Part shown: positions 9,014 to 58,347 of the stretch, in pieces
How the letters are laid out: each line of letters starts with the position of its first letter
Position numbering within the stretch: the stretch's first letter is position 1
DNA from: an uncultured Gammaproteobacteria bacterium
GTDB lineage: Bacteria; Patescibacteriota; Patescibacteriia; Magasanikbacterales; GWA2-37-8
DNA length: 64,000 bases
Assembly: GCA_964641245.1 (NCBI GenBank)
Contig: CAZXML010000001.1
Span: 127,959 to 191,958 of the forward strand
Reading direction: 5' to 3'
Program-made: the position numbers and the translations under genes
The notes under the pieces: model-generated
The model's input: the letters and a program-made list of their open reading frames with translations, nothing else
What the model was told of the DNA's origin: nothing
The model's database searches: none

Positions 9014-10474
9014 ATGTCAGATCAAATTCAAGAAGACAAAGTAAGGCTGGAACGCCTGGAACAAATGCGCGCTCTTGGAATGAATCCGTATCCGAGCCAT
9101 ACGGACAACAGAATTTCCTTAGAGGAGGCAAAAGCTAAACCGGAAAAAACACAGGTACAAATTGCCGGGCGTTTAATTTCCAAAAGAGAAATGGGTAAAA
9201 TTTGCTTTTCTCACTTAAAAGACGCAAGCGGTAAATTACAGCTGGCTTTTTCTGAGAAAGAACTGGGTAAAGAAAGCTACAAATTATTTACAAAATATTT
9301 TGATCTGGGAGATTTTATTCATGTAGACGGAGAAATTTTTGTAACACACAAAGGCGAATTAAGCGTACTGGTCAAAAACTATAAACTTCTGACTAAAACT
9401 CTTCTGCCGTTGCCGGAAAAATTTCACGGGCTGGCAGATATGGAAACCAGATACAGACAAAAATACTTAGACCTAATCGCCAATGAAGAATCAATGAAGA
9501 TTGCCAAAACCCGCAGTCTGGTTGTCCGTGAAATAAGAAAATATTTTGATTGCCAAGGGTTTTTTGAAGTTGAAACTCCGGTGTTGCAGTCGCTTTACGG
9601 CGGGGCTTCGGCCAAACCTTTTAAAACGCACCATAACGCCCTTAATATCCCGCTTTTTCTCCGCATAGCGCCGGAATTATACTTAAAACGCTTAATTGTG
9701 GGCGGGTTTGAAAAAGTGTATGAAATCGCAAAATGCTTTCGCAACGAAGGCATAGACAACAATCATAATCCGGAATTTACTCAAGTTGAGTTTTATTGGG
9801 CCTATGCCGATTATAACGACTTAATGAATTTAATTGAGGATTTTTTGCCAAAAATTATTCAGGCAGCCGGCTTGCCTCTCAAATTTAAATCCCAGAATCA
9901 GGATGTTGATTTTACGCCGCCATATCCGCGCAAAACCATGCGGGAATTAATTAAGGAATACGCCAAAATTGACATCAAAGAATGCCCGGATCAAAAATCA
10001 TTGTTTGCCAAAATAAAAAAATTAAATATTGAAGGAGTTGACGCAAAAACAGGGTACGGAAAAATGGTTGACGAAATTTATAAAACCTACGCGCGTCCAA
10101 AAATTATCAATCCGATTTTTATGATTGATCATCCGGTAGAACTTTCTCCGCTGGCCAAACGAAAAGCGGATAATCCTAAATATGTAGAGCGCATGCAGTT
10201 AGTCTGTGTGGGCGGTAACGAGTTGTGCAACGGCTTTTCCGAATTAAACGATCCGCTGGATCAGGAATCGAGATTTAAGGAACAGGAACATCTGCGCGCC
10301 GCCGGCGACGAAGAAAGCATGCCATACGACGACGACTATATTACCGCTCTTAAACACGGTATGCCTCCAACAGCCGGTTTAGGTATGGGCATAGACCGCC
10401 TGATAAAACTTCTGGTTGATGCGCCAAATTTGAAAGAGGTAATACTTTTTCCCATGTTAAAACCGGAAAAATAA
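9014..10474 (+). CDS. lysS: lysyl-tRNA synthetase (class II)
   Basis: 'RYRQKYLDLIANEE', 'FFEVETPVLQ' and class II motifs 2 and 3 ('GLGMGIDRL'). Confidence 0.9.
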   Translation: MSDQIQEDKVRLERLEQMRALGMNPYPSHTDNRISLEEAKAKPEKTQVQIAGRLISKREMGKICFSHLKDASGKLQLAFSEKELGKESYKLFTKYFDLGDFIHVDGEIFVTHKGELSVLVKNYKLLTKTLLPLPEKFHGLADMETRYRQKYLDLIANEESMKIAKTRSLVVREIRKYFDCQGFFEVETPVLQSLYGGASAKPFKTHHNALNIPLFLRIAPELYLKRLIVGGFEKVYEIAKCFRNEGIDNNHNPEFTQVEFYWAYADYNDLMNLIEDFLPKIIQAAGLPLKFKSQNQDVDFTPPYPRKTMRELIKEYAKIDIKECPDQKSLFAKIKKLNIEGVDAKTGYGKMVDEIYKTYARPKIINPIFMIDHPVELSPLAKRKADNPKYVERMQLVCVGGNELCNGFSELNDPLDQESRFKEQEHLRAAGDEESMPYDDDYITALKHGMPPTAGLGMGIDRLIKLLVDAPNLKEVILFPMLKPEK

Positions 10475-10908: not shown

Positions 10909-11014
10909 AAAAAATTCTTATTGCCACAAGCAATAAAAGAAAATAAAAAGATTTCATTAAAATATATTGATTAAATTTTTGGTTATTTGCTAATTGTTAA
11001 TTGTTTATTTTTAT

Positions 11015-22147: not shown

Positions 22148-22304
22148 ACAAATTAAAGTTTACAAACTCTCTTTGATAATATACTCCAACATGGCGCTAA
22201 ATTCAATCCCCGCCTTTCCGGCAGCCTTTGGGAATAAACTAGTGGAAGTCATGCCAGGAACGGAAAATTTGTTAATTGCTAATTGTTTTTTGTTAATTAG
22301 TTTA

Positions 22305-23551: not shown

Positions 23552-25024
23552 TTAGGACAACTTTTTAATTGCCAAATGAAGTCTGTTTAAAGATTCGTCT
23601 TTTCCCAACACCTCCGCAATTTCAAATGGCCCGGGAGATTTATCCTGTCCGGATAAAGATGCGCGCATTGGCCAAAGGACAGAACCGGTTGAATACGCCA
23701 TCTGCGCAATCCACTCCCCTATCTTTTGTTCCAGTTTTTCCTTATTCCAGTCTTGAACACTTATTGTATTCATAAATTCCGCAAGGGTTGGCAAAATTTT
23801 CTTCACCTCTTCCGCAGAACTTTTTTTCCAAACCAGCAAATCGGCCGCGTAATCAGGCAAGTCAAAAATAAATTTAATAGCATTTGGCAATTCAGACAAT
23901 ACTGTAATTCGTTCTTTCTCCAATGCGACGGCCTTCGTCAACAATTCAATTTGCTCTTTGTTAATTGTTAATTGTTCATTAACCCACGGCATGCTAATTT
24001 CTACAAGCTGAGCATTGGATAATAACTTTATATACTGTTTATTAAACCAATCCAACTTATCGCCATTAAAGACCGCTCCGGTTTTGACTGCCTTGGATAA
24101 ATCAAAATCTTGAACAAGCTCGTCCAGACTGTACATTTCTTTTTCCGTTCCCGGGTTCCAGCCCAAAAAAGCCACAAAATTTATTAAGGCTTCAGGTAAA
24201 TAACCTTTCTTAATATAATCATCCACAGCCACATCGCCTTGGCGTTTGCTTAATTTAGATTTATCAGAATTAAGCAATAAAGACAGGTGCGCCATTTGTG
24301 GAACTTCCCAACCAAAATATTTATATATCTGTAAATGCTTAGGCAAACTACTAATCCATTCATCACCTCTAATTACGTGAGTGATTTCCATCAGATGATC
24401 GTCCACCACTACTGCAAAATGATATGTCGGGTAGCCATCAGATTTAATCAGCACCTGATCATCAATCAATTCATTTTTAAATCTTATTTCACCATGAATT
24501 AAATCCGTAAATACAGTTTCGCCGGTCTTCGGCATTTTCAACCGCACCACGCATTTTTCTCCGCCTTCCGCCCGCTTTTTTGCTTCGGTTGGGCCAAGAG
24601 ATAAACATTGACCATCGTAACCGGTAGGTAATTTTTTAGCCGTCTGCTCCTCCCGCAATTGCGTTAATCTTTCCGTTGTACAAAAACAATAATAAGCATG
24701 CCCGGCCTCTAAAAGCTTATTAACATGTTTCCTATATATAGGAAGGCGCTCCGATTGTGTATAAGGCCCATTTTCACCAACTTCACCAATCTTGCCTTCT
24801 TCACCCATCACCACCCCTTCATCCGGTGATAACCCCGCCCAATTTAAGGATTTCAAAATATTGGCCACAGCATCGGCTACATAACGCTCGCGGTCCGTGT
24901 CTTCTATGCGCAAAATAAATTTCCCGCCATGTTTTTTGGCAAATAAATATGAATACAAAGCGGTGCGGAGTCCGCCGACATGCAGATAACCAGTGGGGCT
25001 GGGAGCGAAACGAGTTTTGATCAT
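23552..25024 (-). CDS. gltX: glutamyl-tRNA synthetase
   Basis: 'RFAPSPTGYLHVGGLRTAL' is the HIGH region and 'KLSKRQG' is the KMSKS motif. Confidence 0.9.
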   Translation of the reverse strand: MIKTRFAPSPTGYLHVGGLRTALYSYLFAKKHGGKFILRIEDTDRERYVADAVANILKSLNWAGLSPDEGVVMGEEGKIGEVGENGPYTQSERLPIYRKHVNKLLEAGHAYYCFCTTERLTQLREEQTAKKLPTGYDGQCLSLGPTEAKKRAEGGEKCVVRLKMPKTGETVFTDLIHGEIRFKNELIDDQVLIKSDGYPTYHFAVVVDDHLMEITHVIRGDEWISSLPKHLQIYKYFGWEVPQMAHLSLLLNSDKSKLSKRQGDVAVDDYIKKGYLPEALINFVAFLGWNPGTEKEMYSLDELVQDFDLSKAVKTGAVFNGDKLDWFNKQYIKLLSNAQLVEISMPWVNEQLTINKEQIELLTKAVALEKERITVLSELPNAIKFIFDLPDYAADLLVWKKSSAEEVKKILPTLAEFMNTISVQDWNKEKLEQKIGEWIAQMAYSTGSVLWPMRASLSGQDKSPGPFEIAEVLGKDESLNRLHLAIKKLS

Positions 25025-25026
25025 AA

Positions 25027-25114
25027 TTGAAATGAGTGAGTGAAATATTTAGCTTGCTAAAATATTTTCGAGCGAATAAGTTTATTTGGGCATTACTTAG
25101 CCCTATAATTAAAT
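25027..25114 (-). promoter_or_regulatory. conserved ~88 nt upstream/leader module, copy 1 of 2, abutting the gltX start
   Basis: About 75% identical to 54183-54263, which lies upstream of the ferredoxin gene on the same strand. Contains the palindrome AAAATATTTT and ends 'cactcatttc..tt' immediately before the ATG. Confidence 0.4.
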
Positions 25115-25917: not shown

Positions 25918-26754
25918 TTATAGCATTCTTTCTCTAAGCGCTAAATAAGTAAATTTTGCCGTTGCGTTAAATATCCGCACAAATCGTCGAGGCTCCTGAA
26001 TCAATCGATACACCCATTCTAACCCAATTTGGCGTAAAAATAAAGGGGCGCGTTTTACTTTTCCGGAAATAAAATCAAATGACCCGCCCACGCCCATGGC
26101 TATTTTTACACACGGCATTTTTGATAGGTTTTCGTGAATCCATTTTTCTTGCTTGCCCATGCCAAAGGCGACGAAGAGGATGTCGGGGTTTGATTGGTTA
26201 ATTTGTTGAATGGTTGAATTGATGCCGGCGACGAAAACCCCCTCTTCTGTTCTCCCCCTTATAGGGGGAGAGACCGCAGCGAACAGCAACGTGTCGCTCC
26301 CTCCCCTATAAGGGGAGGGACAGTGGGTGGGGTTTTGTTCGTCAATCGCTGGACCCCTATCGAAACCAGAGATCTTTAAACTAGGAAACTTTTTCTGCAA
26401 TTCCTCTGCCGTTCTCTTCACTGTTTCGTCACTCCCCGAACCTAACAAATAAACACTCATCCCTAACTCACCGGCTACCCTACAAATCTCTAACATAAAA
26501 TCTACCCCTGGGACTCTTTTAATTCCAGTAAAAATCTGTAAACCCATCCCATCGCACAAATTCAAATCGCTGGAATTTAAAACCTTTTTAAAATATTCGT
26601 CTTTTTGCGCCTTCACTACAAATTCCGGATTGGGAGTAAAAATTGTATGTTGGCCACCATGCAAAAAATCCACGACTTTTTGTAGTGCGGTTTCTTTGGT
26701 ATCTCCGTCAATTTTTATACCCAAAAATTGCATAATATGGTAAAATTGTACCAT
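25918..26754 (-). CDS. WecG/TagA/CpsF-family glycosyltransferase (N-acetylmannosaminyltransferase-like) carrying an in-frame repeat insertion
   Basis: 'ILFVAFGMGKQEKW' and 'IAMGVGGSFDF..GKVKRAP' match the family. The start is uncertain: M14 at 26754 or M21 at 26733. The ORF-track start at 26793 would overlap the CIRCE-like site. Confidence 0.7.
   Translation of the reverse strand: MVQFYHIMQFLGIKIDGDTKETALQKVVDFLHGGQHTIFTPNPEFVVKAQKDEYFKKVLNSSDLNLCDGMGLQIFTGIKRVPGVDFMLEICRVAGELGMSVYLLGSGSDETVKRTAEELQKKFPSLKISGFDRGPAIDEQNPTHCPSPYRGGSDTLLFAAVSPPIRGRTEEGVFVAGINSTIQQINQSNPDILFVAFGMGKQEKWIHENLSKMPCVKIAMGVGGSFDFISGKVKRAPLFLRQIGLEWVYRLIQEPRRFVRIFNATAKFTYLALRERML
26225..26345. repeat. GC-rich double-hairpin element inserted in frame within the TagA-family gene
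   Basis: Perfect hairpins lie at 26251-26271 (TCTCCCCC-ttata-GGGGGAGA) and 26298-26320 (TCCCTCCCC-tataa-GGGGAGGGA). The local GC content is far above its surroundings. It encodes about 40 extra residues that are absent from the family consensus. Confidence 0.6.
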
Positions 26755-32323: not shown

Positions 32324-33121
32324 ATGTCCCTAGTTTTCGCCGCCATTACCCCGCATCCTCCCCTACTCATTCCCAGCATCGGCAAGGAATCTCTAAAAAA
32401 ATTGGAGAAAACAAAAATCGCCATGGAGCAGATGGAGAAGGATTTATATTTAACTCATCCGGAAATTATCGTGGTCATTTCTCCCCACGGCAGTTATTTT
32501 AACGATGCTTTTACTCTTAACGTCTGCACCCACTATCAAACCGACATGCGCGAATTTGGCGATTTGGCGACGAAAATAAAATTTCACGGGGAAACTCATT
32601 TGTCCACGCTAATTCGCGAGGGCACTAAAAAAAACCATATCCCCGCTACCATGGTCAGCGAACAAAATTTGGACCATGGTTCATCGGTGCCATTATCCTA
32701 TCTCACGAAACATTTAAAAAATGTAAAAATAATTCAGATTGGTTTTTGCGATCTGGATTGGAAAACCCACGTTGCTTTTGGCGCCATGATTGCGGATAAA
32801 ATTGCGGAAACAAATAAACGGGTGGCGGTCATTGCATCCGGAGATTTATCTCACGCTTTAATTTCCGACGCTCCTGCCGGCTATAATCCCGCCGGTCCGG
32901 AATTTGACCGAAAAATCCAGGATCTGCTGTCCGCTAACAACCTGTCCGGCATGTTACAGCTGGACAAGCAGTTTGTTACAGACGCGTCCGAATGCGGATT
33001 CCGGTCATTTTTAATTTTAATGGGCATTTTGCAAGGCGTTCATCATACCTATAAATCATACTCATACGAAGGGCCGTTTGGCGTTGGTTATCTTACCGCC
33101 AACTTCGCCTTGTCCATATAA
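32324..33121 (+). CDS. class III extradiol dioxygenase-fold protein (LigB/Memo-like)
   Basis: 'AAITPHPPLLIP' and 'VVISPHGS' match the family. Confidence 0.45.
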   Translation: MSLVFAAITPHPPLLIPSIGKESLKKLEKTKIAMEQMEKDLYLTHPEIIVVISPHGSYFNDAFTLNVCTHYQTDMREFGDLATKIKFHGETHLSTLIREGTKKNHIPATMVSEQNLDHGSSVPLSYLTKHLKNVKIIQIGFCDLDWKTHVAFGAMIADKIAETNKRVAVIASGDLSHALISDAPAGYNPAGPEFDRKIQDLLSANNLSGMLQLDKQFVTDASECGFRSFLILMGILQGVHHTYKSYSYEGPFGVGYLTANFALSI

Positions 33122-33126
33122 CCTAA

Positions 33127-33233
33127 CTGTCATCCCGAATGAGCCGTAGCGACGAGGGATCTAAACCGATAAAAGAAAATTTTTTTTAATTTGAATAGAT
33201 CCCTCGTCGGCTAAGGCCTCGCTCGGGATGACA
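33127..33233. repeat. inverted pair of GTCATCC-family hairpin repeats. Left unit 33127-33161, right unit 33197-33233.
   Basis: 'tgtcatcccgaatgagccgtagcgacgagggatct' ... 'agatccctcgtcggctaaggcctcgctcgggatgaca'. The right unit is identical over 37 nt to 52521-52557. Confidence 0.7.
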
Positions 33234-35127: not shown

Positions 35128-35619
35128 ATGCTACTACCCATCACAATGGAACCTGACCCTCTTTTACATAAGGTTTCCAAAAATTTAACCGCCGAACAAA
35201 TAAACTCCAAAGAAACAAAGGAGTTTGTTGTCAATCTGATAGAAACTATGTATGCCAAAGACGGCGTGGGCATTGCTTCGGTTCAGGTTGGCAACCCGAT
35301 TCAGCTGTGTGTCATTGCGGCCGCATTTACTCCGGAAAAATTAAACGATTTGGTTCTGATCAATCCTACATTTACAAAAGTTTCCGTTCTTCGTTCCTGG
35401 GATGAAGAAGGGTGTCTTTCCGTTCCTAATATTTACGGTTCGGTAAGACGGTTTAAAAAAATAAAAGTATCGGCCTTGGATAGCGACGGTAAAAAAATTG
35501 AGTTTGTGGCCACAGATTTTTTTGCCAGAATTATTCAACATGAAATCGACCACTTGAACGGAATTTTGTTTATTGAGAAAGCAAAAAAATTACATACGTT
35601 TGATAAAGAAAAGTTGTAA
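35128..35619 (+). CDS. def: peptide deformylase
   Basis: 'GVGIASVQVG', 'EGCLSVP' and 'QHEIDHLNG'. Confidence 0.85.
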   Translation: MLLPITMEPDPLLHKVSKNLTAEQINSKETKEFVVNLIETMYAKDGVGIASVQVGNPIQLCVIAAAFTPEKLNDLVLINPTFTKVSVLRSWDEEGCLSVPNIYGSVRRFKKIKVSALDSDGKKIEFVATDFFARIIQHEIDHLNGILFIEKAKKLHTFDKEKL

Positions 35620-35638: not shown

Positions 35639-35708
35639 TTGTCATCCTGAACTTGTTTCAGGATCTATCACGACTAACCAAGATGCTGAAACAAGTTCAG
35701 CATGACAA
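35639..35708. repeat. inverted pair of GTCATCC-family hairpin repeats between def and fmt
   Basis: Left unit 'ttgtcatcctgaacttgtttcaggatct' at 35639-35666. Right unit 'tgaaacaagttcagcatgacaa' at 35687-35708. The left unit is identical over 28 nt to the reverse complement of 58202-58229. Confidence 0.7.
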
Positions 35709-35714: not shown

Positions 35715-36674
35715 ATGCAAAAAACAAAAATTATTTTCTTCGGCACACAAGATTTTGCCGCCACTATTTTACAGGGATTGCTGGACAGCGATATTGTTTC
35801 GGTTGAAATGGTATTTACCCAGCCGGATAGAAAAACCGGACGTAAACAAATTATAGAAGAATCCCCGGTTAAAAAACTGGCAAAAAAATATAATATTTCC
35901 GTTGAGCAACCCGAGTCGCTAAAAAATTTACAATTTCTCCCGACTGCTAATCGGGATTCTCGATTCACAAACGGTACAATTTCCAATATTCCACTCGGCA
36001 TCGTTGCCCAGTACGGTCTTATTATCCCAAAAACCATCATCGATTCATTTTCCAAGGGAATGATTAATGTTCACGGCTCGCTTTTGCCAAAATATCGTGG
36101 CGCCTCCCCTATCCAGGCCGCGCTGGCAAACGGAGCCAAAGAGACCGGTATCACTATTATTTCCATGGACGAAAAAATGGATCATGGGCCGATTTTATCG
36201 CAGGCTACAACAGTAATTGACAAGAATGACACCTACACCACCCTAGCCTCAAAACTGGCCGCGGAAGGCCTTATTTTGCTGTTAAACACCCTTCCGGAAT
36301 GGTTAAATGGCACCCTAAAAGCCGAGTCGCAAGACGAGAGCCAGGCCACTTTCACCAAGCTTCTGACCAAAGAAGATGGGCTGGTTGATTTTAGCAAGGC
36401 TAACGAAGAAATATATAATCAATGGCGTGGTCTTACCCCTTGGCCGGGAATCTGGACAATGTGGAACGGTAAACGGCTTAAACTTTTAAAAATAAAAAAA
36501 TCAGATAAATCATTAACCGCCAGACAAGTAAGCGTGGAAGAACAGAGGATGTTTATCGGTTGTGGAGAAAAATCGATAGAAGTGCTGGAACTGCAAATGG
36601 AAGGAAAAAATCCCATGGACGCAAAAATTTTCTTAAGCGGTTACTCAAGTATTAACGGCGCGAAACTAAATTAG
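35715..36674 (+). CDS. fmt: methionyl-tRNA formyltransferase
   Basis: 'IIFFGTQDFA' and 'INVHGSLLPKYRGASPIQ', plus the C-terminal domain. Confidence 0.85.
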   Translation: MQKTKIIFFGTQDFAATILQGLLDSDIVSVEMVFTQPDRKTGRKQIIEESPVKKLAKKYNISVEQPESLKNLQFLPTANRDSRFTNGTISNIPLGIVAQYGLIIPKTIIDSFSKGMINVHGSLLPKYRGASPIQAALANGAKETGITIISMDEKMDHGPILSQATTVIDKNDTYTTLASKLAAEGLILLLNTLPEWLNGTLKAESQDESQATFTKLLTKEDGLVDFSKANEEIYNQWRGLTPWPGIWTMWNGKRLKLLKIKKSDKSLTARQVSVEEQRMFIGCGEKSIEVLELQMEGKNPMDAKIFLSGYSSINGAKLN

Positions 36675-37695: not shown

Positions 37696-39129
37696 ATGAA
37701 CGCTTCTACCCTTACAAAAAGACCAATCCCCTTATTCCTTGCCCTATACTTTGGCTTGCGAATTTTTTCCTATTTCTTCAGCCCAGGAACCCCATTATAC
37801 TTGGGCAACCCTATAAATTGGATTGTTTCCGTTGGAATCCTACTACTTACTACCTACTACTTACTACTTCGCAATGACGAGCGTGGCTGGCTGATTATTG
37901 CCGGAGAGTTAATTTTGGGTGGGGCGGGCGGCTTTTTGGAGATAAGAGGTGTTTCTTTGCGAACTTTGTTGCTAATATCCGCAATGGCAATTTTTGTATA
38001 TCATGTTTTAAAAAATAAACAATTTGACGTAATTGGGAGCAAAAGAACTCTATTGCTTATATTCAAAGCCTTGTTCGTGATAATTGGCCTGTCCGCCATG
38101 CGCGGTTACTATTTTGGTCACAATCTTAAACTGGTCTTGGCCGATACCATTCCATATCTTTTCCTCTTATACTACTTCCCGCTCAAACAACTTCTTCAAT
38201 CCGAAACATTTCGTCGCACATCGTTTAACATGTTAATTGCGGCAATAATCGGCAATTTTATTTTTATATATCTGACCCTGGCCGGATTTTCTTCCGGAGT
38301 TTTTGCTCTGCAGGATTCCTACTACCATTGGTTCAGAGATGTAGCCGGCGGCAAGATTACCGACTACGGCACCGGATTTTTTAGAATACTGACAAATGAA
38401 CAATTATTGATTGTGCCGTTGTTGATATTTTTCATCGGAAATATTATTCGCCAACCCACCCCTACCCCGCCCAAGCGGGGAATTACAAGTTTTGGCCTCG
38501 CAATGACAGGCGCGCTATTGGCGCTACTAACAATAAATATAACCCGCATTTACCTGGTCGCGCTGGCCGTTGGTATTTTATTTTTATTCTCCGCAAAAAA
38601 TTGGAAACGCTGGCTTACCTACTCTGCCGGAGCGTTCATTTTTTTTATTTTGGCTTTTTCCCTCACTCACCTAGCCGCCACCAAGGGAAAAAGTTTGGGC
38701 TGGGAATATTTAGGATTGCGCCTGCAAAGTATTGCCATGCCGCAAATTGAAGACAGCTCGCTTAGCCGGATGATGCTTCTGCCGAAAATTCTGGAAAAAA
38801 TCAAACTTCATCCGATATTGGGCAATGGATTGGGTGATGCGGTTACAGTGTTTAGTCCAGTATTCGATGCAAACATAACAACCCCGCATTTTGACTGGGG
38901 CTATTTGGAAATAATAGACGAACTTGGTCTCGTCGGTCTCGCAACTTGGATATTAATTATTGGATATTTGATATTGAAAATTAAACAAAACAAGACCGCT
39001 CTCGCAGGTCTTGTTGGGTTGTTGGTTATAAACATCACTTCCCCGGCGCTATTTCATGTGTTGGGAGTGGTTTTTTTAATTTACTTACTAAGTAGCTATG
39101 GCGAAGTTGAACTCACCGAGTTCCACTAG
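37696..39129 (+). CDS. O-antigen ligase/polymerase (Wzy_C) family polytopic membrane protein, carrying an in-frame repeat and a 14-nt tandem duplication
   Basis: 'HFDWGYLEIIDELGLVGLATWILII' resembles the Wzy_C signature. Many TM helices. Confidence 0.5.
   Translation: MNASTLTKRPIPLFLALYFGLRIFSYFFSPGTPLYLGNPINWIVSVGILLLTTYYLLLRNDERGWLIIAGELILGGAGGFLEIRGVSLRTLLLISAMAIFVYHVLKNKQFDVIGSKRTLLLIFKALFVIIGLSAMRGYYFGHNLKLVLADTIPYLFLLYYFPLKQLLQSETFRRTSFNMLIAAIIGNFIFIYLTLAGFSSGVFALQDSYYHWFRDVAGGKITDYGTGFFRILTNEQLLIVPLLIFFIGNIIRQPTPTPPKRGITSFGLAMTGALLALLTINITRIYLVALAVGILFLFSAKNWKRWLTYSAGAFIFFILAFSLTHLAATKGKSLGWEYLGLRLQSIAMPQIEDSSLSRMMLLPKILEKIKLHPILGNGLGDAVTVFSPVFDANITTPHFDWGYLEIIDELGLVGLATWILIIGYLILKIKQNKTALAGLVGLLVINITSPALFHVLGVVFLIYLLSSYGEVELTEFH
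37840..37867. repeat. perfect tandem duplication of a 14-nt unit (ctactacttactac x2) inside the CDS
   Basis: 37840-37853 is identical to 37854-37867. The unit length is not a multiple of 3. Confidence 0.7.
38450..38484. repeat. 35-nt G/C-hairpin repeat, copy 1, in frame inside the O-antigen-ligase-like gene
   Basis: 'gccaacccacccctaccccgcccaagcggggaatt' is identical to 60448-60482. Contains the hairpin CCCCGC-ccaa-GCGGGG. It encodes 'QPTPTPPKRGI'. Confidence 0.75.
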
Positions 39130-43433: not shown

Positions 43434-46400
43434 TTATATTATACTCTCCTTTTTCTTTTTCCTTTTTAATCTTAGACTGTTGATGCCCGCATACCCCAAA
43501 TATCCTAAACAGCCCACTAAGGTAGTACCGCTGATAAGTAGCCCTAAATAAAACCATCGCTGTGGGAAAAATTCTAGCACCATTTCAATATCGTATGTGC
43601 CGTCGGCATTTTTAGTACACATACTATTCTTTACGCAATACTCATCTACATCCACATACCAACCATTTAAAAAGTCATTTAACTTATAATGATACTCATC
43701 AGCAATTTTATCCGGTTTTACAAACGGCACCCACGATCCAAAGAATCCGTTAACTTTATCATTATTAAATTGCAATTGCCACTGCTCATGATAGCTCTCG
43801 CTCATCGCTAAATAGAACGGTGTTGTAGCACCTTTAATATGTACCAACTTTTTCGTTGGATTTATTAAATCAAAAGTAATTGATTTCGGTTCCTCAAGTT
43901 CAATACCCGGATCACTTACCAGATAATAAGCATCACTCAAATCAGGAACTTCAATTAACTTGAAATTGTCATATCTATTTATTATATTAGTCTTTTCATC
44001 TGTTGAATCAGCATAAACATACAAGGAAACAGAAGTCGCCCCCTCTGGAACTTTAATAAGTTTTGAAAAAGTATTCCAATTTTTGTCTTTAATAGCAAGA
44101 TCCTCTGAAATAATAGTTTTTTCTTTATCGTTAAAACTAAAATAGTATAAAGCATGATCCGCATTTGGGCTCTGATAGTCAAAACTAAATAAATACGAAC
44201 CGCCGGTAGTTACGTTCAAACCAATTGCGGTACAGGCGTTATGCCTTGTCGCTTCAAGTTGTAATGATTGCTCACCATCTGACTTTACTTCTTTATTCAC
44301 ATCCATACCCAAAATAGGATTTTTATCAAAATTATGACAATCACCCACTTTGTCCTGCCAAGGACCGCTCTCAAAAGATGGGTTAGGAATTATGTTTTGA
44401 TAATTATAGTTTTTATCTTGATATGTAAAGACAAAATTCACAGCGTTAGATTTTGGTAAAATATTTTTCGAATACTCGCTTGTAATGTTGGTGGGTACTT
44501 CTACGGCGCTAATATATTTTAATTTACTAAAATTAAAATTATCATACCGATTTATAACTTTTTCTACATTATCTGATGCTTTGGCATATATATAAAGAGT
44601 GGCTGAGGTGGCGTCCTGGGGAACGACAATCAATCTTCGGTATGTATTCCAATTTGCATCCACAATATTTATAACATCCTTTACTTCAGTTTTTTCTTTA
44701 TCATTAAAGACAAGATAAAAACTTGCCTGCTTAGCGTTTGGACTTTGAAAGTCAAAAGTTAATACGTACTTTCCAATATCTTGAATTGATATCTTTGTAT
44801 TAACACAAGCGGTGTGTTTCGTAGCATAAAGCTCTAATGACTGTGCCCCACTACTCATATTCTGTTGGGTCAAATTCATGCCTATGACAGGATTGCTATC
44901 ATAATTATTACAATCTCCGACTTTGTCTTGCCAAGAACCGCTCTCAAAAGAAGGATTATTGATCAGATTATTTGAACTTGCAAAAATACTGATTTGTGAA
45001 TCAGCCAAAGAATTGCCTAAATTTATAGTATTACCTTTGGTAAAGGCGGTAAAGTTACTTCCTTGTTCTAAATAATACTCTGTGTTTAAATTTTTAGAAA
45101 TATTTAAAATATTTTGTGAATCATTCTGACTTATAATTTGATTACCTATTTTTAACATCTCGCCATAATTTATGTTTATTTGTATTTTGCTATCGGTATC
45201 AACACCGTATACTCCAAAAACTTTCTTATTTGCATAGACAGTATTATCTTTATTGCTAACAAAAAAACTAGAAGTAGATACTAGTGTTTTACTATCCGAA
45301 AGAATACTACTAAACGATAAATCCTCAAACGGATTAGTTATTTTTATTAGAGGATTTGTATTTGTTTTTTTATCATTCACGCTAAAGTAAAAATCTGTAT
45401 TAAGTTTTTTGTTTATAAAATTAAATTTTGAATCAAGGTTATTTGCAGAATCAAAATCATATAATTTAGAAAATGGAAAAATTAGTTCTTTATAATTTTT
45501 ATTTTCATATATAACAAGATTTGTTGCACCTACATCCACCTTTTTTAACCAATTAACTTTATCAAGTTGATCAATATACCATTGCCGAATATTTGGGTTT
45601 TTATCTCCTCCGTAGTACTGAAAGAAATCGTCGTCGTTTGAAATATCTTGAATAGGAATAACAACATATTTTATTGAAGAGATACCAAATAATGTTTTAG
45701 AGAAAGACTGTTGAAAAACGTTGATTACTTGATTTTGCGCAGCCAAACCATTATTCGCTAAAAATAAATTGGCCCAAGTGGTATCTACTCCACTTACTTC
45801 GGGATGCAGGTTTGTGTTAATTCCCCATCGAGAATTTCTAGGCACCCAATATGTTCTAGAATAATCCGACTGTGACTCTACAAAATTTTTAAGCATTAGA
45901 TAGTCGGATGAGATACGGCGAGGCGTGAACATTGCGCCTATCTCCCCAGTAACAATAGGTTTGGTATTCCAAAGAAAGAGCGTAACAATAGCAACTATAG
46001 AGCAGTTTCTAACAAATACTCTGAATTTGTTCTTATTACTGTTTTTTAATATCCAAGCGACCAGAGAACCCAGCAATGCTGAATACCCAAGCGCGATCAA
46101 AAAATAAAACTTACTTGCTTCCCGAAACGCATTAAAGCCAGGGAAATGAGCAAAGAGCCAAGGATAGACTTGTGAAAAAGGTTGATCTACTTGTTTAGTT
46201 AAGAAAATACCAACCAAAGAAATAATCGTAAAAAACGTTATATATTTATTTTTTCGATTTAAAAGAAAACCAATAAAAGCAAAGATGGGTATAAGCCAAG
46301 AATAAAAAGAAATGGGCTGCACAATAAACCATTTAACCGCCGAGCCGGTCCAAAAAGGATGAAGGAGTGTAAAACTAGATTGTAAACTCCAGAAATTGTT

Positions 46401-47168
46401 CCCAAATAAGGATCTGTTTAGAACAGCATTATCTAGTAAAGAGCCACTCTCAATTTGTGGAAGAAACCAATAAAAATTTAAAAGAATAAAACAAAAAAAG
46501 GCAGCGAATATTTTTCCTAATAGAGAAAAAACTTTCATCTCACTGGATCGACCCATGAAGACTAAAAAGTATAAGAGATATAAAACCATAACGAACAGGA
46601 CTATATAAGACATTCGTATATCGTAAAAGGTTGAAACAAAGAGTAGTAAAGAAGATGCCAAAAGGTATCGAGAATTATTGTTTTTGGCATCTAGTCCAAC
46701 CATAAAAACAAAAAGTGCGCTCACGCAAAAAGCTGAAGCGGCAGTAATCATTTCATGGCCCTGTGTCGATATGGCCAAAAAATAGGTATTGAAAGACAAG
46801 ACCACCGAACCCATAAGTGCACCCCCGTTGCTTGATGTGATTTTCCTAACCAGGAAAAAGGAACTTAACGGCAATAAAAAGATAATCGGTATGAAAACTA
46901 CAAAGAAATCTGCAATATTCGAATTAAAATTTAGGTAACCAAAAAAACTGTATAGTAAGTACACTGGCGCTTTCCAAAAGGTCAAATCTATGGAGCCAAA
47001 ACCTGTACTAGCGAGCCGAACCGAGAGCACCGAAAGTTCCTTGAGTTTACTAGCATAAAGGAACCCCCAATCAGCATGTTGAAAAATAGAGAAGGTAAAC
47101 CAAATATGATATGTCACTAGACCAAAAACAGTCAAAAAAACAGTGTAAATTATAGACTTATTTTTCAT
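43434..47168 (-). CDS. giant (1244 aa) polytopic membrane protein with two tandem C-terminal CBM4/9-like carbohydrate-binding domains
   Basis: About 12 N-terminal TM helices. Duplicated ~140 aa modules begin 'NPSFESG.WQDKVGDC.N.D.NP..GM' and end 'INRYDNF'. A C-terminal TM anchor and a K-rich tail follow. Confidence 0.5.
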   Translation of the reverse strand: MKNKSIIYTVFLTVFGLVTYHIWFTFSIFQHADWGFLYASKLKELSVLSVRLASTGFGSIDLTFWKAPVYLLYSFFGYLNFNSNIADFFVVFIPIIFLLPLSSFFLVRKITSSNGGALMGSVVLSFNTYFLAISTQGHEMITAASAFCVSALFVFMVGLDAKNNNSRYLLASSLLLFVSTFYDIRMSYIVLFVMVLYLLYFLVFMGRSSEMKVFSLLGKIFAAFFCFILLNFYWFLPQIESGSLLDNAVLNRSLFGNNFWSLQSSFTLLHPFWTGSAVKWFIVQPISFYSWLIPIFAFIGFLLNRKNKYITFFTIISLVGIFLTKQVDQPFSQVYPWLFAHFPGFNAFREASKFYFLIALGYSALLGSLVAWILKNSNKNKFRVFVRNCSIVAIVTLFLWNTKPIVTGEIGAMFTPRRISSDYLMLKNFVESQSDYSRTYWVPRNSRWGINTNLHPEVSGVDTTWANLFLANNGLAAQNQVINVFQQSFSKTLFGISSIKYVVIPIQDISNDDDFFQYYGGDKNPNIRQWYIDQLDKVNWLKKVDVGATNLVIYENKNYKELIFPFSKLYDFDSANNLDSKFNFINKKLNTDFYFSVNDKKTNTNPLIKITNPFEDLSFSSILSDSKTLVSTSSFFVSNKDNTVYANKKVFGVYGVDTDSKIQININYGEMLKIGNQIISQNDSQNILNISKNLNTEYYLEQGSNFTAFTKGNTINLGNSLADSQISIFASSNNLINNPSFESGSWQDKVGDCNNYDSNPVIGMNLTQQNMSSGAQSLELYATKHTACVNTKISIQDIGKYVLTFDFQSPNAKQASFYLVFNDKEKTEVKDVINIVDANWNTYRRLIVVPQDATSATLYIYAKASDNVEKVINRYDNFNFSKLKYISAVEVPTNITSEYSKNILPKSNAVNFVFTYQDKNYNYQNIIPNPSFESGPWQDKVGDCHNFDKNPILGMDVNKEVKSDGEQSLQLEATRHNACTAIGLNVTTGGSYLFSFDYQSPNADHALYYFSFNDKEKTIISEDLAIKDKNWNTFSKLIKVPEGATSVSLYVYADSTDEKTNIINRYDNFKLIEVPDLSDAYYLVSDPGIELEEPKSITFDLINPTKKLVHIKGATTPFYLAMSESYHEQWQLQFNNDKVNGFFGSWVPFVKPDKIADEYHYKLNDFLNGWYVDVDEYCVKNSMCTKNADGTYDIEMVLEFFPQRWFYLGLLISGTTLVGCLGYLGYAGINSLRLKRKKKKESII

Positions 47169-52274: not shown

Positions 52275-53948
52275 TCAATTCCCGTCCAACCCCCTCGCCT
52301 CTTCTCTGCTCTCCACCAATCCCAACCGCACCAAACGCGCTTCTATTCCGCTTTTTTTACGGCCCAGGGTTTCGGCTATTATAGAAAGGAGTGTTTTTTT
52401 GGAAAAAAGTATTTTTAGAATTTCGTCTTGTTCTTCGGTCCACGAACGAAAAGCGTTAGGGTGTTTTTCGCGAATTTTGTCAAAACTGCGATCTTTGCCT
52501 TTATTTTTTTTCATGGGTATAGATCCCTCGTCGGCTAAGGCCTCGCTCGGGATGACAGCGGTGGGAGGGATGACAGATGGTGGGATAACAACAGTGCCAC
52601 TGCATGCTTTTACAAAATTGTTGTGCATTTTTTGTAATTCAGCGGGTGGAATTTCGGCAAAGGCGGTTAAGGCGGCTTCGGAGCTGGCGCGGAATACACC
52701 GTCTTCTTTTAAAACATCCGGATGAACCTGAAACGCGCGTTCGTTCCAGCCGAGCAGATGCAGGCCTTTTAGGCGACGAACGCGGGAAAGCGCCACATAA
52801 CCCTGGCCAAACTCAAAAACTCCGCTCAAGTCCACGACCGCTTCATCCAAACTCATCCCCTGGCTTTTGTGAACCGTAATTGCCCAGGCTAAACGCAGAG
52901 GCAATTGTGAAATTTTGGCGCGCGATTTTCCATTTTCGTCTATACTCCAATCCATTTTTTCTACGGTAATTTTCCGGCCGTCGTTGGTTTTTACAATCGG
53001 CATGCCGATATACTTATCAAAACTTTCCACCGTGCCCAGCGTGCCGTTTACATAACCCTCTTTAGGATTATTTTTGGTAAACATTATTTTTGCGCCTTCT
53101 TTTAAAACTAAATTATACGGAGAAAGACATCCTCTCTGCAATGTTTCCACCAACCCGGGAGCGCCCTTAGATGTCATGATGTATGTTACGGGGTGTCCGG
53201 AAAAAGTTTCCAACATGGCGTCATTGGTGCGGTCAACATTTATGTTATGCGTATAAAGTTTCACCGCTTTGTCCGGCGCGTCATCAGCCAAAATTTTTCG
53301 GCTTTCTAGTTGCGCTAAATGGTTTTCATTAAAATTATTGGAGCGGATTGCCGAAAGTAAATTTAAAAACTTACTGTCATCCTGACGATGCTGTTCGGTA
53401 AGATAACAAACCATTGGATTCGCTCTTTTCCAGGCCGGAGAATCATAGGCAAACCGCGCTATTGGAGTATTAAACATTTCAGTTTGATCATCCCGACTTG
53501 CTACGCTTTTCGTTATTGGTGGTAACTGAAAAAAATCCCCTACCAAAATAACCTGTAACCCGCCAAAGGCATCGTTGTTTTGTCTGATACTCCGGCACAC
53601 GGCCTCTACCATAGAAAAAGTATCGGGGCCGAGCATTGATACTTCGTCTATCACCAAAACTTTTGCGCGGCGAACGCGTTTAACCAAATATTCGGTAGAA
53701 GAAATTTTATCTAACTCATACCTATCCAAATACGGTTTGATTCCAATCCCACTCCACGAATGAATTGTCATCCCGCCAATATGAGTAGCCGCGATGCCCG
53801 TGGAAGCCGTAATGGAAGGCTCTATCCCCCGCGCGCGCAAATAATCCGCGTACTGATTTATAGTATGCGTCTTGCCCGCTCCCGGTTCTCCGGTTAAAAA
53901 AACATTGGCGCCGGTTTTAAGTATGTCCAGCGCTTCCTTCTGATTCAT
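52275..53948 (-). CDS. PIF1/RecD-family (AAA_30) DNA helicase with a C-terminal HTH-like domain and an in-frame repeat insertion in the linker
   Basis: 'LTGEPGAGKTHTI', 'VLVIDEVSM', 'VGDFFQLPP' and 'TVHKSQGMSLD'. The linker 'VVIPPSVIPPTAVIPSEALADEGSIP' is encoded by the repeat. Confidence 0.75.
   Translation of the reverse strand: MNQKEALDILKTGANVFLTGEPGAGKTHTINQYADYLRARGIEPSITASTGIAATHIGGMTIHSWSGIGIKPYLDRYELDKISSTEYLVKRVRRAKVLVIDEVSMLGPDTFSMVEAVCRSIRQNNDAFGGLQVILVGDFFQLPPITKSVASRDDQTEMFNTPIARFAYDSPAWKRANPMVCYLTEQHRQDDSKFLNLLSAIRSNNFNENHLAQLESRKILADDAPDKAVKLYTHNINVDRTNDAMLETFSGHPVTYIMTSKGAPGLVETLQRGCLSPYNLVLKEGAKIMFTKNNPKEGYVNGTLGTVESFDKYIGMPIVKTNDGRKITVEKMDWSIDENGKSRAKISQLPLRLAWAITVHKSQGMSLDEAVVDLSGVFEFGQGYVALSRVRRLKGLHLLGWNERAFQVHPDVLKEDGVFRASSEAALTAFAEIPPAELQKMHNNFVKACSGTVVIPPSVIPPTAVIPSEALADEGSIPMKKNKGKDRSFDKIREKHPNAFRSWTEEQDEILKILFSKKTLLSIIAETLGRKKSGIEARLVRLGLVESREEARGLDGN
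52521..52590. repeat. GTCATCC-family repeat unit plus degenerate tandem partial copies, in frame within the helicase gene
   Basis: 52521-52557 is identical to 33197-33233. It is followed by 'gcggtgggagggatgacagatggtgggataaca', a reiteration of the gggatgaca terminus. Confidence 0.75.
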
Positions 53949-53988: not shown

Positions 53989-54180
53989 TTATTCTCCCCA
54001 CGAAATTGCCTGGGTCGGGCAAGAATTAATTGCTGTTTCAATTGTGGCCTCATCGTCGCCAACCTCGTCTAAAACCAACGCTTTTGTGCTATCGTCGGTC
54101 ATTTTAAATGTTTTGGCGGCAATGGACGGACAAAGACTGCAACCGATGCACTTATCCGCGTCTACTTTTGGTATTTTCAT
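53989..54180 (-). CDS. small 4Fe-4S ferredoxin
   Basis: 63 aa, with 'CIGCSLCPSIA' and a distal 'CP'. Confidence 0.7.
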   Translation of the reverse strand: MKIPKVDADKCIGCSLCPSIAAKTFKMTDDSTKALVLDEVGDDEATIETAINSCPTQAISWGE

Positions 54181-54182
54181 AA

Positions 54183-54263
54183 GCGAAATGAGTGAATAAA
54201 ATAGTTAGTTTACTAAAATATTTTTGAGCGAATGAGTTTATATGCGGCAAAGCCCCTATAAAA
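54183..54263 (-). promoter_or_regulatory. conserved upstream/leader module, copy 2, abutting the ferredoxin start
   Basis: See 25027-25114. The two copies are collinear at about 75% identity and sit at the same distance from their start codons. Confidence 0.4.
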
Positions 54264-56189: not shown

Positions 56190-56260
56190 ATGTGAATTAG
56201 CAATTAACAACGAACAATGAGCAATCGATTGTTTCTTGTTAATTGTTAGTTGTTAATTAA
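56190..56260. promoter_or_regulatory. long imperfect palindrome in the rrf2-nifS upstream region (candidate operator)
   Basis: 'caattaacaacgaacaat' ... 'attgtttcttgttaattg' match at 16 of 18 positions as an inverted repeat, flanked by TTAATTG reiterations. Confidence 0.4.
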
Positions 56261-56261: not shown

Positions 56262-56852
56262 CTAGAACGGAAGGGTCAAGTTTATATTCTTTTTTGCGGT
56301 AGAATTTTTGTTATCAGATTCGGGGTCAAAGTTGACGGCGAACGGAACAATTTCTCCGACTAAATTCTGATAAAATAACTGTTTGTTGTTCTTGCCGAAT
56401 TCGTAAATTTCTTTGGTTACTTTTACATCCTGTTCGCAATATTTTTTTATCTCGTCTATTTTTCCTTCCTTCCACCAGCGGATGGCCTGCAAACCGTCCG
56501 CGCTTTTTTCCATATCCAAAGTGGCCATGGCGATGGAATTTAATTTTAGGCGGATGCCAACACTTTCTTTTACCTTCTTCATGATATCCAAATGGCTGAT
56601 GACAGATAAATCTCCCAAATAATAATTATGTAAAATCGGTAGGTCAAAATGTTCGCTGTTGTAACCGATTATGCGGTCGGCTTTTTCCAGAATTGGCCAC
56701 AATTTATTTAATTCATTTTCTTCAAAACTGGTATATGTGTCGGTGACGTACTGATAAATGGAAACGCACGAAATTTTGAATTTCTTAAAATCATTATCCA
56801 CATCCGCAAATGTGTTTTGTGTTTCAATATCAAAAACTATTTCATTGAGCAT
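56262..56852 (-). CDS. DEDDy-type 3'-5' exonuclease domain protein
   Basis: 'VFDIETQ' is Exo I, 'GYNSEHFDLPIL' is Exo II and 'YCEQDVKVT' is Exo III with Tyr. Confidence 0.5.
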   Translation of the reverse strand: MLNEIVFDIETQNTFADVDNDFKKFKISCVSIYQYVTDTYTSFEENELNKLWPILEKADRIIGYNSEHFDLPILHNYYLGDLSVISHLDIMKKVKESVGIRLKLNSIAMATLDMEKSADGLQAIRWWKEGKIDEIKKYCEQDVKVTKEIYEFGKNNKQLFYQNLVGEIVPFAVNFDPESDNKNSTAKKNINLTLPF

Positions 56853-56891: not shown

Positions 56892-56971
56892 TTGTCATCC
56901 TGAATGAAATGAAGGATCTCTGTCTCAATCGCGAAATGGACAGAGATTCTTCGTTTTGCTCAGAATGACAA
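56892..56971. repeat. inverted pair of GTCATCC-family repeats with a central 8-bp-stem hairpin, between thiI and the exonuclease gene
   Basis: Left unit 'ttgtcatcctgaatgaaatgaaggatct'. Centre TCTCTGTC...GACAGAGA. Right unit 'attcttcgttttgctcagaatgacaa'. Confidence 0.6.
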
Positions 56972-58150
56972 CTAACACGGACTTACAGAACCACCGCTTA
57001 CATTATAAGAAATAACTTCGGTTTTATCGATTATGGATTCGTCAATCAGCCCTTCGTATTTTAAAACATCTTTTAGTCTGGCCTTTGTTTCCGGGTGCTT
57101 AGCCACAAATAAACTGCAACAATCTTCGTAAGGGCGGGCGGAAATATCCAGGGTGCCGATTTTACGGGCAAGATCTATTATATCTTTTTTATTTGTTCCT
57201 ATCAACGGTGACAGTTTTAACAATTCCGTGGCATTGGCAATAACGGCCATGTTCTCCAGAGTTTGCGAAGCCACCTGGCCTAAGCTATCGCCGTTTACTA
57301 ACGCCAGACAATGATTTTGGCGGGCAACTTTTTCGGCGATTTTATTAAATATCCGGCGCGTCACTATCATGCGGTATGGCGCCGGAACCTTCATAATAAT
57401 TTGTTTTTGAACTTCAGCAAACGAAACCATAAATAATTTTATCTCGGGCTGGTAGTTGGATAAAACTTTCGCCAAATCAAATATTTTTTCGCTTACCGCT
57501 TCGGTAACTTGAGTTTGATTTTGAAAATGAATCAGGCTTGCTTCCCCGCCCCGGCACATTATTTTGTATGCCGCCACCGGGCTGTCTATGCCGCCGGATA
57601 ACAAAGCCAGCACTTTGCCGGATGAACCTGCAGGCAATCCGCCGGCGGCGTTTTGCGTATTACCATAAATACAAGTTTCGGTTTTGCCGACGGAAATATG
57701 AATATTCAAATCCGGATTATTTAAAGAAACCTGCCAGTTATATTTTACGCGCGCGTATTCCCCGATTTCTTTGGCTATTTCGCCGGATGAAAGTGGGAAG
57801 TTTTTAAATGAACGTTCGGCGGAGATGCGGAAGGACAGCGCCTCGGCAACTCCCTCTCGCTCCCTCTTGGTAAGAGGGAGATTGTGACCGAACAATTCGT
57901 CTACTCCTTTTTTTATATCCTCAATCGTGGATTTTGTTTTTATAGCTTCGGAGTAATTGGCAAAACCTGGAATTAGGGATAATTGCGACATTTGCTCCGC
58001 CTGAATATTTTCCAGCCATAAGCCCCCCTCTACTCTGACAACCCGAACACCCGATAACAGATTTTCGAAATTATTCTTAAGATGACGATAAAAAAGGGGC
58101 TGATTAGAGCCCTTCAAGAATATCTCGTCTATGTGGATAATTACATTCAT
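56972..58150 (-). CDS. thiI: tRNA 4-thiouridine synthase ThiI (THUMP + PP-loop)
   Basis: PP-loop 'ALLSGGIDSPVAAY' with an N-terminal THUMP-like region. Confidence 0.8.
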   Translation of the reverse strand: MNVIIHIDEIFLKGSNQPLFYRHLKNNFENLLSGVRVVRVEGGLWLENIQAEQMSQLSLIPGFANYSEAIKTKSTIEDIKKGVDELFGHNLPLTKREREGVAEALSFRISAERSFKNFPLSSGEIAKEIGEYARVKYNWQVSLNNPDLNIHISVGKTETCIYGNTQNAAGGLPAGSSGKVLALLSGGIDSPVAAYKIMCRGGEASLIHFQNQTQVTEAVSEKIFDLAKVLSNYQPEIKLFMVSFAEVQKQIIMKVPAPYRMIVTRRIFNKIAEKVARQNHCLALVNGDSLGQVASQTLENMAVIANATELLKLSPLIGTNKKDIIDLARKIGTLDISARPYEDCCSLFVAKHPETKARLKDVLKYEGLIDESIIDKTEVISYNVSGGSVSPC

Positions 58151-58201
58151 AGCGTCTCAAATGTCAAGCTGAATTTATTTCAGCATCTATAATGTCCGCG
58201 C

Positions 58202-58324: not shown

Positions 58325-58347
58325 AAATTTAACAAAGGAGGTGGCGC

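Follow-up and report, generated by a model that had tools for sequence, protein, structure and literature searches.

Probable Ssn-related motifs, including a variant hairpin type, among the dispersed repeats of a Parcubacteria genome

A 64,000-nt stretch of contig CAZXML010000001.1 (assembly GCA_964641245.1, positions 127,959 to 191,958; this whole stretch is the window below) carries short inverted hairpin repeats between its genes, and the question raised by this locus was what kind of element these repeats are and with which enzyme they are connected. A preliminary description made from the sequence had reported an inverted pair at 33127-33233 as one member of a family with copies at five or more loci. 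The pair was confirmed, with the shared termini CTGTCATCCCGA...GAGGGATCT, and nine units of the form TGTC-AT(C/G/T)CY-GA…RG(G/C/A)AT-CT were found at five loci, all of them between 33 and 58 kb. They were arranged as four inverted doublets (33128-33233, 35640-35707, 56893-56970 and 58162-58228) and one single unit (52521-52557). Eight units were obtained by a strict scan, which asked for a TGTCA tag, at least 5 complementary bases counted from the A, and TCT at the end. A covariance model derived from a 46-unit seed and run on the window without filters recovered these eight together with a degenerate ninth at 58162-58188, and nothing further above noise. The 12-mer TTGTCATCCYGA, with at most one mismatch, occurred 10 times in the window against 0.39 expected, a number reached by none of 100 shuffles, and the repeats are a dispersed, non-chance family far above chance expectation. 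Two of the 12-mer matches in the helicase gene (53374 and 53765) had neither a hairpin nor a covariance-model score and probably arose by chance.

Some copies were identical to each other over their whole length. The unit at 35640-35666 is the same as that at 58202-58228, and 33197-33233 is identical to 52521-52557 at 37 of 37 positions, in a match that extends to 56 nt at 93% identity. The entire 58.2-kb doublet is the reverse complement of the 35.6-kb doublet with a diverged spacer. The earlier view of dispersed hairpin units resembling repetitive extragenic palindromes (REPs), and not parts of a longer duplicated segment, was supported, and several of its details were revised. The 35.6-kb pair is inverted and ends 7 nt before the fmt ATG as had been reported, with its right unit at 35681-35707 instead of 35687-35708. 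The pair between thiI and the exonuclease gene at 56.9 kb was found again, and the "extra central hairpin" ascribed to it consists of the 3' tails of the units, CTCTGTC/GACAGAG. The 58.2-kb copy, described as a solo unit identical to the left 35.6-kb unit, is indeed identical to it and has a degenerate partner (TGTCAAGCTGAATTTATTTCAGCATCT) 13 nt away. The intragenic copy at 52521-52557 was also recovered, on the minus strand in the open reading frame (ORF) of a Pif1-like helicase.

All units showed the same order of parts, namely TGTC, a stem opening with AT, an inner part, the complementary stem closing with AT, and then CT. Two types were distinguished by the inner part. Type B (35.6 and 58.2 kb) forms 8 bp without a mismatch around a 5-nt loop, and the z value of its DNA fold lies between -3 and -4.6. 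The GA-type (33.1, 52.5 and 56.9 kb) has 5 Watson-Crick pairs followed by 5'-GA...GA-3' facing each other, and then either a short inner hairpin with 2 Watson-Crick pairs and a 3-nt loop (a 2-bp GNA mini-hairpin) or a 15-19-nt insert. It folded no better than shuffled sequence (z about 0) in a Watson-Crick-only nearest-neighbour model, in which G·A pairs are not credited. DNA mini-hairpins of the d(GCGAAGC) type reportedly were found by Hirao and colleagues to be unusually stable, and tandem sheared G·A pairs are said to form in a Y-GA-R context; the GA-GCGNAGC-GA core has the same form and is flanked by Y-GA-R steps, a likeness to be taken as a structural analogy only. The partners of a doublet differed by compensatory stem changes, ATCC/GGAT against ATGC/GCAT or ATTC/GAAT. 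The tail CTCTGTC/GACAGAG of the 56.9-kb units also followed units in L123, a contig from a related member of the Parcubacteria.

The stem was then evaluated for conservation and covariation. In the 46-unit seed alignment T1 G2 T3 C4, A5, C26 and T27 were invariant, all but C4 being fixed by the scan pattern that had supplied 42 of the 46 rows. Among 30 pattern-independent units, TGTC was present in 28 of 29 complete rows and C26 in 30 of 30, with T27 variable, and the tag is borne by all nine window units. Strong stem covariation was detected in 150 model matches (114 distinct sequences), with a score of 0.245 compared to 0.122 in shuffles and with 0 of 500 shuffles reaching 0.245. The covarying pairs were 7/50 (CG, UA or GC), 9/48 (UA or CG) and 12/45 (GC or AU). 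One-sided changes were absent from the outer stem of the 114 distinct sequences, the G·A and A·G positions were non-Watson-Crick in more than 90% of the sequences, and the flanks outside the units showed no conservation. The conservation of an unpaired tag and of mismatches across phyla suggested that the units are recognised by a conserved protein, and that it is not merely a stable stem that is kept. The retention of G·A and A·G on one strand and the lack of G·U-type changes in the outer stem would also favour recognition in single-stranded DNA (ssDNA) only, as indirect support.

Repeats with such a plan have been reported in other bacteria. Di Nocera, De Gregorio & Rocco 2013 (BMC Genomics 14:522, PMC3733652) described a superfamily of CGTC-tagged REPs with the families CGTC-1 to CGTC-4, which includes dRS3 of Neisseria and RPE-4 and RPE-6 of Rickettsia. 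In this superfamily TGTC is a frequent tag and CCTC another variant, the stems (8-9 bp, with 4-5-nt loops) almost always start with AT, and a short unpaired 3' tail, mostly CCA, follows. Head-to-head dimers predominate, heterodimers with compensatory stem differences occur, the repeats are scattered between genes in unidirectional or convergent order, and in-frame copies are found inside genes, notably those of replication and repair; no adjacent transposase or associated enzyme was found. The window repeats share the TGTC tag, the AT-starting stem, the short 3' tail, the predominance of head-to-head dimers, the location between unidirectional genes, and an in-frame copy in a gene of replication or repair, here that of the Pif1-like helicase. 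Type B fits the superfamily in stem and loop (8 bp and 5 nt), whereas the GA-type departs from it by non-Watson-Crick pairs, by a 3-nt loop or a long insert, and by the CT tail. A search of literature full text yielded no paper containing the exact repeat sequence or its peptides.

The enzyme came from the work of Chenal et al. 2025 (Nat Commun 16:2388, PMC11893778), in which NTS (oriented dRS3, CGTCATTCCCGCGMAVGCGGGAATCYRG) and "Ssn-related motifs" (SRM) were found to flank ssnA, the gene of a 94-aa single-domain GIY-YIG protein (cd10448). SsnA bound the motif in ssDNA form only, with double-stranded DNA, RNA and the reverse strand all left unbound, and its cut fell a few nucleotides 5' of the GTC tag. 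Binding depended critically on the C that follows the palindrome and cleavage on the 3 nt upstream; the conserved tag and C26 of the units are these positions. Transformation of N. meningitidis by DNA that bears NTS is reduced by the system, and the authors likened NTS-ssnA-NTS to an insertion sequence. As in SRM and NTS, the repeats studied here are oriented hairpins with an unpaired (C/T)GTC 5' of an AT-starting stem and a conserved C right after the palindrome; they are multi-copy, mostly intergenic, often in inverted pairs, bracket ssn genes and occur in many phyla. They differ from SRM in that the GA-type has 5 Watson-Crick pairs, tandem G·A/A·G and the 2-bp GNA mini-hairpin or insert in place of a continuous 8-9-bp stem, in the window tail CT instead of CYRG, and in the host, which belongs to the Parcubacteria within the candidate phyla radiation (CPR). 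This placement in the Parcubacteria/Patescibacteria follows from the homologues of the helicase and of PriA; the window is part of a 304-kb NCBI contig, and its DNA is also represented on a JGI metagenome contig.

The connection of the repeats with a gene was not visible from the repeats themselves. When 941 ORFs within 600 nt of 166 units were clustered, no recurrent protein emerged, and a GIY-YIG regular expression found none among the 119 loci listed. The GIY-YIG idea was dropped after these searches, revived by L123 and confirmed by a search that started from the gene, which shows that a master gene present only once is missed when one starts from random copies of its repeat. L123 carries a gene for a 97-aa GIY-YIG protein (9427-9720; PF01541, E=4e-13) bracketed by inward-facing GA-type units at 9386-9412 (+, TGTCATTCTGAACGCAGTGAAGAATCT) and 9726-9752 (-, TGTCATCCTGAACGCAGTGAAGGATCT); an ssn-like gene is also present in the related Parcubacteria contig L124. 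The family of the L123 protein is very large, and many of its proteins have unit-derived N- or C-terminal peptides (CHSERSEES... or ...DPSLRSG-stop). A sequence search of the PDB for an Ssn structure returned only UPF0213/YhbQ-like GIY-YIG proteins.

Hairpins tagged with [CT]GTCA[TC] were determined at 80 metagenome loci encoding the L123-type nuclease family. Their density was 4.06/kb in the 130 nt upstream of the gene (+) and 5.23/kb downstream (-), compared to 0.27/kb elsewhere, an enrichment of about 15-19-fold. Both sides of the gene were flanked at 33 of the 80 loci and at least one side at 52, while both sides in the wrong orientation were found at only 5. The flanking hairpins varied from NTS-like (L199, TGTCATTCCCGCGCAGGCGGGAATCC) to GA-type. 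GA-type units adjoined 22 loci, on both sides in 17, and SRMs of the published pattern adjoined 12; no locus had both. The proteins clustered by the hairpin type beside their genes, with 37 of 39 nearest neighbours concordant, which was reached by 0 of 2000 label permutations. At L126, type-B units identical to unit 4 of the window adjoined the nuclease gene.

The spread of the motif was then surveyed. A genome-wide pattern search had been proposed for this genome, and it was run over many-species reference genomes instead (one genome per GTDB species; TGTCATCCYGA N5-30 RGGATCT), where the motif occurred in at least 119 stretches from many phyla. Among the matches listed, the record titles named Acidobacteriota, Chloroflexota, Bacteroidota, Bacillota, Gemmatimonadota, Planctomycetota, Melainabacteria, CPR groups, Proteobacteria and others; paired copies in other phyla had the same inward-facing arrangement as in the window, and the commonest unit across genomes was 27 nt long with the core GA-GCGNAGC-GA.

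Closer relatives showed filled and empty sites. The LigB-priA junction holds a doublet in the window and in L204 (89% PriA identity) and is 4 nt long in L206 (80%). The def-fmt junction, 95 nt with its doublet in the window, is 2-6 nt or overlapping in L205, L206 and L123, and the priA-def junction is 1 nt in the window and contains a different, NTS-like doublet in L204. Gene junctions have gained or lost doublets, and the recent activity proposed for the family was supported by junctions that are filled in the window and measure 2-6 nt or overlap in relatives of 75-83% PriA identity. The NTS-like doublet of L204, the closest relative (TGTCATTCTCGCCTCAGCGGGAATCC...GGATTCCCATTGTGATGGGAATGACA, 6268-6343), stands between priA and def alongside GA-type doublets, so that two hairpin subfamilies coexist in one lineage.

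We consider it probable that the units are Ssn-related motifs, alias TGTC/CGTC-tagged REPs, that serve as sites of a cognate Ssn nuclease, and that the doublets are derivatives of an SRM-ssn-SRM arrangement from which the gene is missing. Unit anatomy, stem covariation, cross-phylum spread, the association of gene and hairpin, the co-variation of protein clade with hairpin type, and the filled and empty sites come from this analysis; binding and cleavage of ssDNA only, and the effect on natural transformation, would carry over by analogy from the Neisseria literature. In the proposed mechanism the units would form short oriented hairpins in ssDNA, and a cognate Ssn, a single-domain GIY-YIG protein of about 95 aa, would recognise them much as the Neisseria enzyme binds the hairpin and the following C. 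The inverted doublets, with TGTCA outermost, would represent the SRM-ssn-SRM architecture minus the gene, most likely as non-autonomous derivatives, and would be gained and lost at gene junctions and also, in frame, in tolerant protein linkers. This Parcubacteria genome presumably encodes the cognate Ssn, which may act on GA-type and type-B units alike, and Ssn, or host recombination triggered by its nicks, would spread the doublets.

A number of points weigh against this interpretation. The published SRM pattern, HGTCWYN(0-2)YYVSBRHN(0-5)WNVSBRGN(0-2)RNCYNB, had 0 matches in the window and matched none of the units, while the Neisseria NTS control matched it; the pattern is a search heuristic from 29 genomes and not a biological definition, and the window would thus carry a variant that it misses. 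Cutting was shown for the Neisseria SsnA, and a GA-type specificity class is predicted from sequence. The L123 family is linked to Ssn/cd10448 indirectly, through NTS-like flanks at some loci, protein size and the Y/Y/E positions, which suggests membership. No tagged hairpin was detected at 24-28 of the 80 ssn loci (24 and 28 with two simple detectors), and no ssn-like gene was found in the 64-kb window (best tblastn E=0.019). Target-site duplications were not visible at the four doublets, and the alignments of filled and empty sites are too diverged for exact boundaries.

Other explanations were weighed on the same evidence. The REPIN-RAYT system (Bertels & Rainey 2011; Nunvar 2010; Ton-Hoang 2012) is alike in having a tagged-hairpin doublet as the evolving unit, hairpin recognition in ssDNA, a single-copy nuclease gene bracketed by its own repeats, and co-evolution of enzyme and repeat. 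Classical REPINs, which a RAYT (an IS200/IS605-like Y1 HUH transposase) mobilises by way of ssDNA hairpins, would account for the doublets, the dispersed intergenic sites, the unpaired 5' tetranucleotide tag and the hairpin covariation. The tag is, however, TGTC and not the RAYT-defining GTAG, CGTC/TGTC repeats are not associated with RAYT genes (PMC3733652), no protein recurred among the ORFs near the units, and the gene actually bracketed by units encodes a GIY-YIG and not an HUH/Y1 fold. In addition, REP sequences are specific to their lineages, while many phyla share the one core GTCAT(Y)C...G(R)ATC, and we regard this explanation as highly unlikely. A shade less probable still is the label MITE (a miniature transposable element with inverted repeats) given in the preliminary description, under which the units would be the terminal inverted repeats of a DDE-transposon derivative moved as double-stranded DNA. 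Inverted termini around a short variable centre and a presence that varies among relatives agree with such an origin, but the target-site duplications expected with it were sought as flanking direct repeats at the four doublets and none was visible, each supposed terminal repeat is itself a covarying hairpin, single units exist, and no transposase recurs beside the units. The enzyme associated with the full-length counterpart is a 95-aa GIY-YIG ssDNA nuclease, and a DDE enzyme is not implicated.

A role at the RNA level is less remote than either of these, though still improbable. The units would then act as terminators or attenuators, or as hairpins that stabilise mRNA 3' ends in operons as proposed for E. 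coli REPs, and the link with the nuclease would be secondary. All four doublets lie between same-strand genes and would be co-transcribed (the earlier placement "between convergent or tandem genes" held for the tandem part, none being between convergent genes); the type-B units form the stable 8-bp hairpins described above, and many REPs have been argued to be transcribed (PMC3733652). The suggestion of bidirectional terminators was nevertheless not borne out, since none of 16 terminator-like sites (32.5-36.5 kb and 52-59 kb) overlapped a unit, no T-run directly followed the stems, and the GA-type folds had z about 0. A purely thermodynamic element would not need the tag and the G·A positions that GA-type units keep across phyla while being no stabler than shuffles, and one-sided changes of the G·U type would not be expected to be missing from its outer stem. 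SsnA does not bind the RNA form (PMC11893778). The window gave 0 matches in Rfam at the gathering thresholds, and an E-value search with doublets at five other loci gave only sub-threshold matches to generic long-hairpin (miRNA) models. A secondary RNA-level effect on neighbouring genes may accompany the role of the units as nuclease sites.

Within the interpretation as Ssn-related motifs, a more specific proposal is tentative and falls a little short of an even chance: the GA-type would be a separate Ssn/SRM specificity class with its own Ssn clade, missed by the published pattern, with homing-type spread included. Such a class would be widespread in poorly covered phyla (CPR/Patescibacteria, Acidobacteriota, Chloroflexota, Melainabacteria), and doublets would still be being gained at junctions in tiny Parcubacteria genomes. 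Copies at old sites would stay identical to copies far away, and the 37/37 copy in the Pif1 gene hints at nuclease-driven gene conversion or homing, and not only at a host "ssDNA restriction". The basic picture is unchanged, because this kind of system has already been described; the family kind was reported in 2013 and explained in 2025, and the window contributes a host from the CPR, a GA-type variant that lies outside the published pattern and has a nuclease clade to itself, and clear filled and empty sites. For work on Ssn, the published SRM pattern appears to under-sample the family by a large class, the GA-type, in which non-Watson-Crick pairs occur and to which a separate nuclease clade belongs; this class may be a source of new specificities for cutting ssDNA and a means of learning how a hairpin is read by a protein of 95 aa. 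The filled and empty junctions of close Parcubacteria relatives are natural material for studying repeat movement. For annotation, the units create spurious starts, as in priA, and unit-derived peptides in called proteins (CHSERSEES, VILSEAKDL, ...DPSLRSG).

The coordinates of the units and of the neighbouring genes are given in Table 1.

Table 1. Hairpin units of the window and the genes beside them
Feature	Position	Strand	Type and sequence	Placement	Support
Unit 1	33128-33162	+	GA-type, 35 nt, TGTCATCCCGA-ATGAGCCGTAGCGAC-GAGGGATCT	left half of doublet 1, between LigB-like gene (stop at 33121) and priA	27.6 bits, E=2.4e-4
Unit 2	33197-33233	-	GA-type, 37 nt, TGTCATCCCGAGCGAGGCCTTAGCCGACGAGGGATCT	right half of doublet 1	32.4 bits
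Unit 3	35640-35666	+	type B, fully Watson-Crick, 27 nt, TGTCATCCTGAACTTGTTTCAGGATCT	left half of doublet 2, between def and fmt	39.7 bits; DNA fold -6.1 kcal/mol, z=-4.1
Unit 4	35681-35707	-	type B, compensatory stem ATGC/GCAT vs ATCC/GGAT	right half of doublet 2; end 7 nt before fmt ATG	36.3 bits; fold z=-4.6
Unit 5	52521-52557	-	identical to unit 2	single; in frame in linker of Pif1-like helicase ORF	
Unit 6	56893-56919	+	GA-type, 27 nt, TGTCATCCTGAATGAAATGAAGGATCT	left half of doublet 3, between exonuclease gene and thiI	43.2 bits
Unit 7	56944-56970	-	GA-type, ATTCT/AGAAT stem, TGTCATTCTGAGCAAAACGAAGAATCT	right half of doublet 3; one base (56971) before thiI stop codon (56972-56974)	38.3 bits
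Unit 8	58162-58188	+	degenerate type B, one degenerate stem base, TGTCAAGCTGAATTTATTTCAGCATCT	left half of doublet 4; 11 nt upstream of thiI start	32.6 bits; fold z=-3.0
Unit 9	58202-58228	-	type B, identical to unit 3	right half of doublet 4	39.7 bits
GA-type sequence			TGTCATCCTGAGCGAAGCGAAGGATCT		
LigB-like	32324-33121	+			Pfam
PriA	ORF from 33228	+			Pfam
def	35128-35619	+			Pfam
fmt	35715-36674	+			Pfam
Pif1-like helicase	52275-53948	-			Pfam
3'-5' exonuclease	56262-56852	-			Pfam
ThiI	56972-58150	-			Pfam

The overlap of the priA start with a repeat, pointed out in the preliminary description, is real in the sequence, where the ATG at 33228 lies inside unit 2 (GGATGACA), and is an artefact as a start. 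Among the 29 closest PriA orthologues (P0242-P0270), 24 begin with MIIQ(V/I)IPA(K/R)R or with a form that differs from it by one or two residues, a start that in the window falls on the ATG at 33249, 15 nt beyond unit 2; the others were called from an in-frame downstream Met (MPLSLPFLDY, window 33279) or nearby. The unit-derived MTxCDLN extension was common to only one close relative (89% identity). The ATG at 33228 is therefore a spurious extension of the ORF. The outward ATGACA ends of units scored as -35-like hexamers with a downstream -10-like element at 33228, 35702 and 58223 (+) and at 56898 (-), for example ATGACA-17-GATAAT directly before priA, and the units might supply outward promoters as the ends of some insertion sequences do.

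Unit 5 encodes ...VIPSEALADEGSI... within the helicase ORF, and its terminal fragments are repeated at 52567-52576 and 52582-52592, where they add the peptides VIPPS and VIPPT. The unit lies in the linker between the helicase core and the C-terminal domain (codons ~452-476), and many orthologues have unit-derived peptides there (VIPSEALADEGS, VILSEEKNP). By lineage the linker contained a decayed copy of the 37-nt type (L121 and L122), a copy of the 27-nt type (L123), a doublet (P0015) or nothing, so that it looks like a tolerated hotspot for units. Unlike the decayed copies of L121 and L122, the window copy is intact and matches 33197-33233 at all 37 positions, which points either to a renewed insertion at a site that tolerates it or to copies being homogenised with each other. 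A small second GIY-YIG gene was observed in L121 (9756-9995), L123 (9760-9999) and L205 (10791-11039), in each case directly upstream of the Pif1 helicase; in L121 and L123 its type differs from ssn and is YhbQ/UPF0213-like (MYYLYILEC...). At the same site the window has a 315-nt gap without this second gene. The best tblastn match of the ssn search, at 62769-62912, fell in a HicA-like ORF and was rejected as a GIY-YIG gene; by sequence appearance (GSHAKY motif) a HicA-like toxin and HicB-like antitoxin pair occupies 62839-63268 (-).

In the gap of about 700 nt (58230-58940) that lies upstream of thiI, neither a gene with Pfam support nor an Rfam match was found; the sole candidate is an ORF of 114 aa rich in Cys (58554-58898), which weakly matches a B-box-like zinc finger. 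An AT-rich motif family, TTGTTAATTGTTAATTGTT, was observed at no fewer than four intergenic sites (10980-11011, 22269-22300, 23951-23982 and 56195-56260), one of which is a palindrome just upstream of the exonuclease/Rrf2 gene cluster; the motif could be an operator or promoter element.

Further repeats of the window were of other kinds. An unrelated repeat, GCCAACCCACCCCTACCCCGCCCAAGCGGGGAATT, is present at 38450-38484 and 60448-60482 with 35/35 identity, 22 kb apart, and contains a CCCCGC-CCAA-GCGGGG hairpin. At 26229-26341 a 39-nt inverted repeat with 77% complementarity and a 35-nt spacer surrounds CCCCTTATAGGGG / CCCCTATAAGGGG with G/C-rich flanks, and it may be another hairpin-doublet family. 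A 68-nt direct repeat of 85% identity (TCATAA.CGAAATGAGTGA...TTTTCGAGCGAATAAGTTTAT) was located at 25021-25088 and 54177-54244, the latter copy between a ferredoxin-like gene and the Pif1 helicase start. Finally, two segments in tandem (44115-44958), repeating every 573 nt and 72-81% identical, were found inside the 1244-aa ORF at 43434-47168, which indicates an internal domain duplication.

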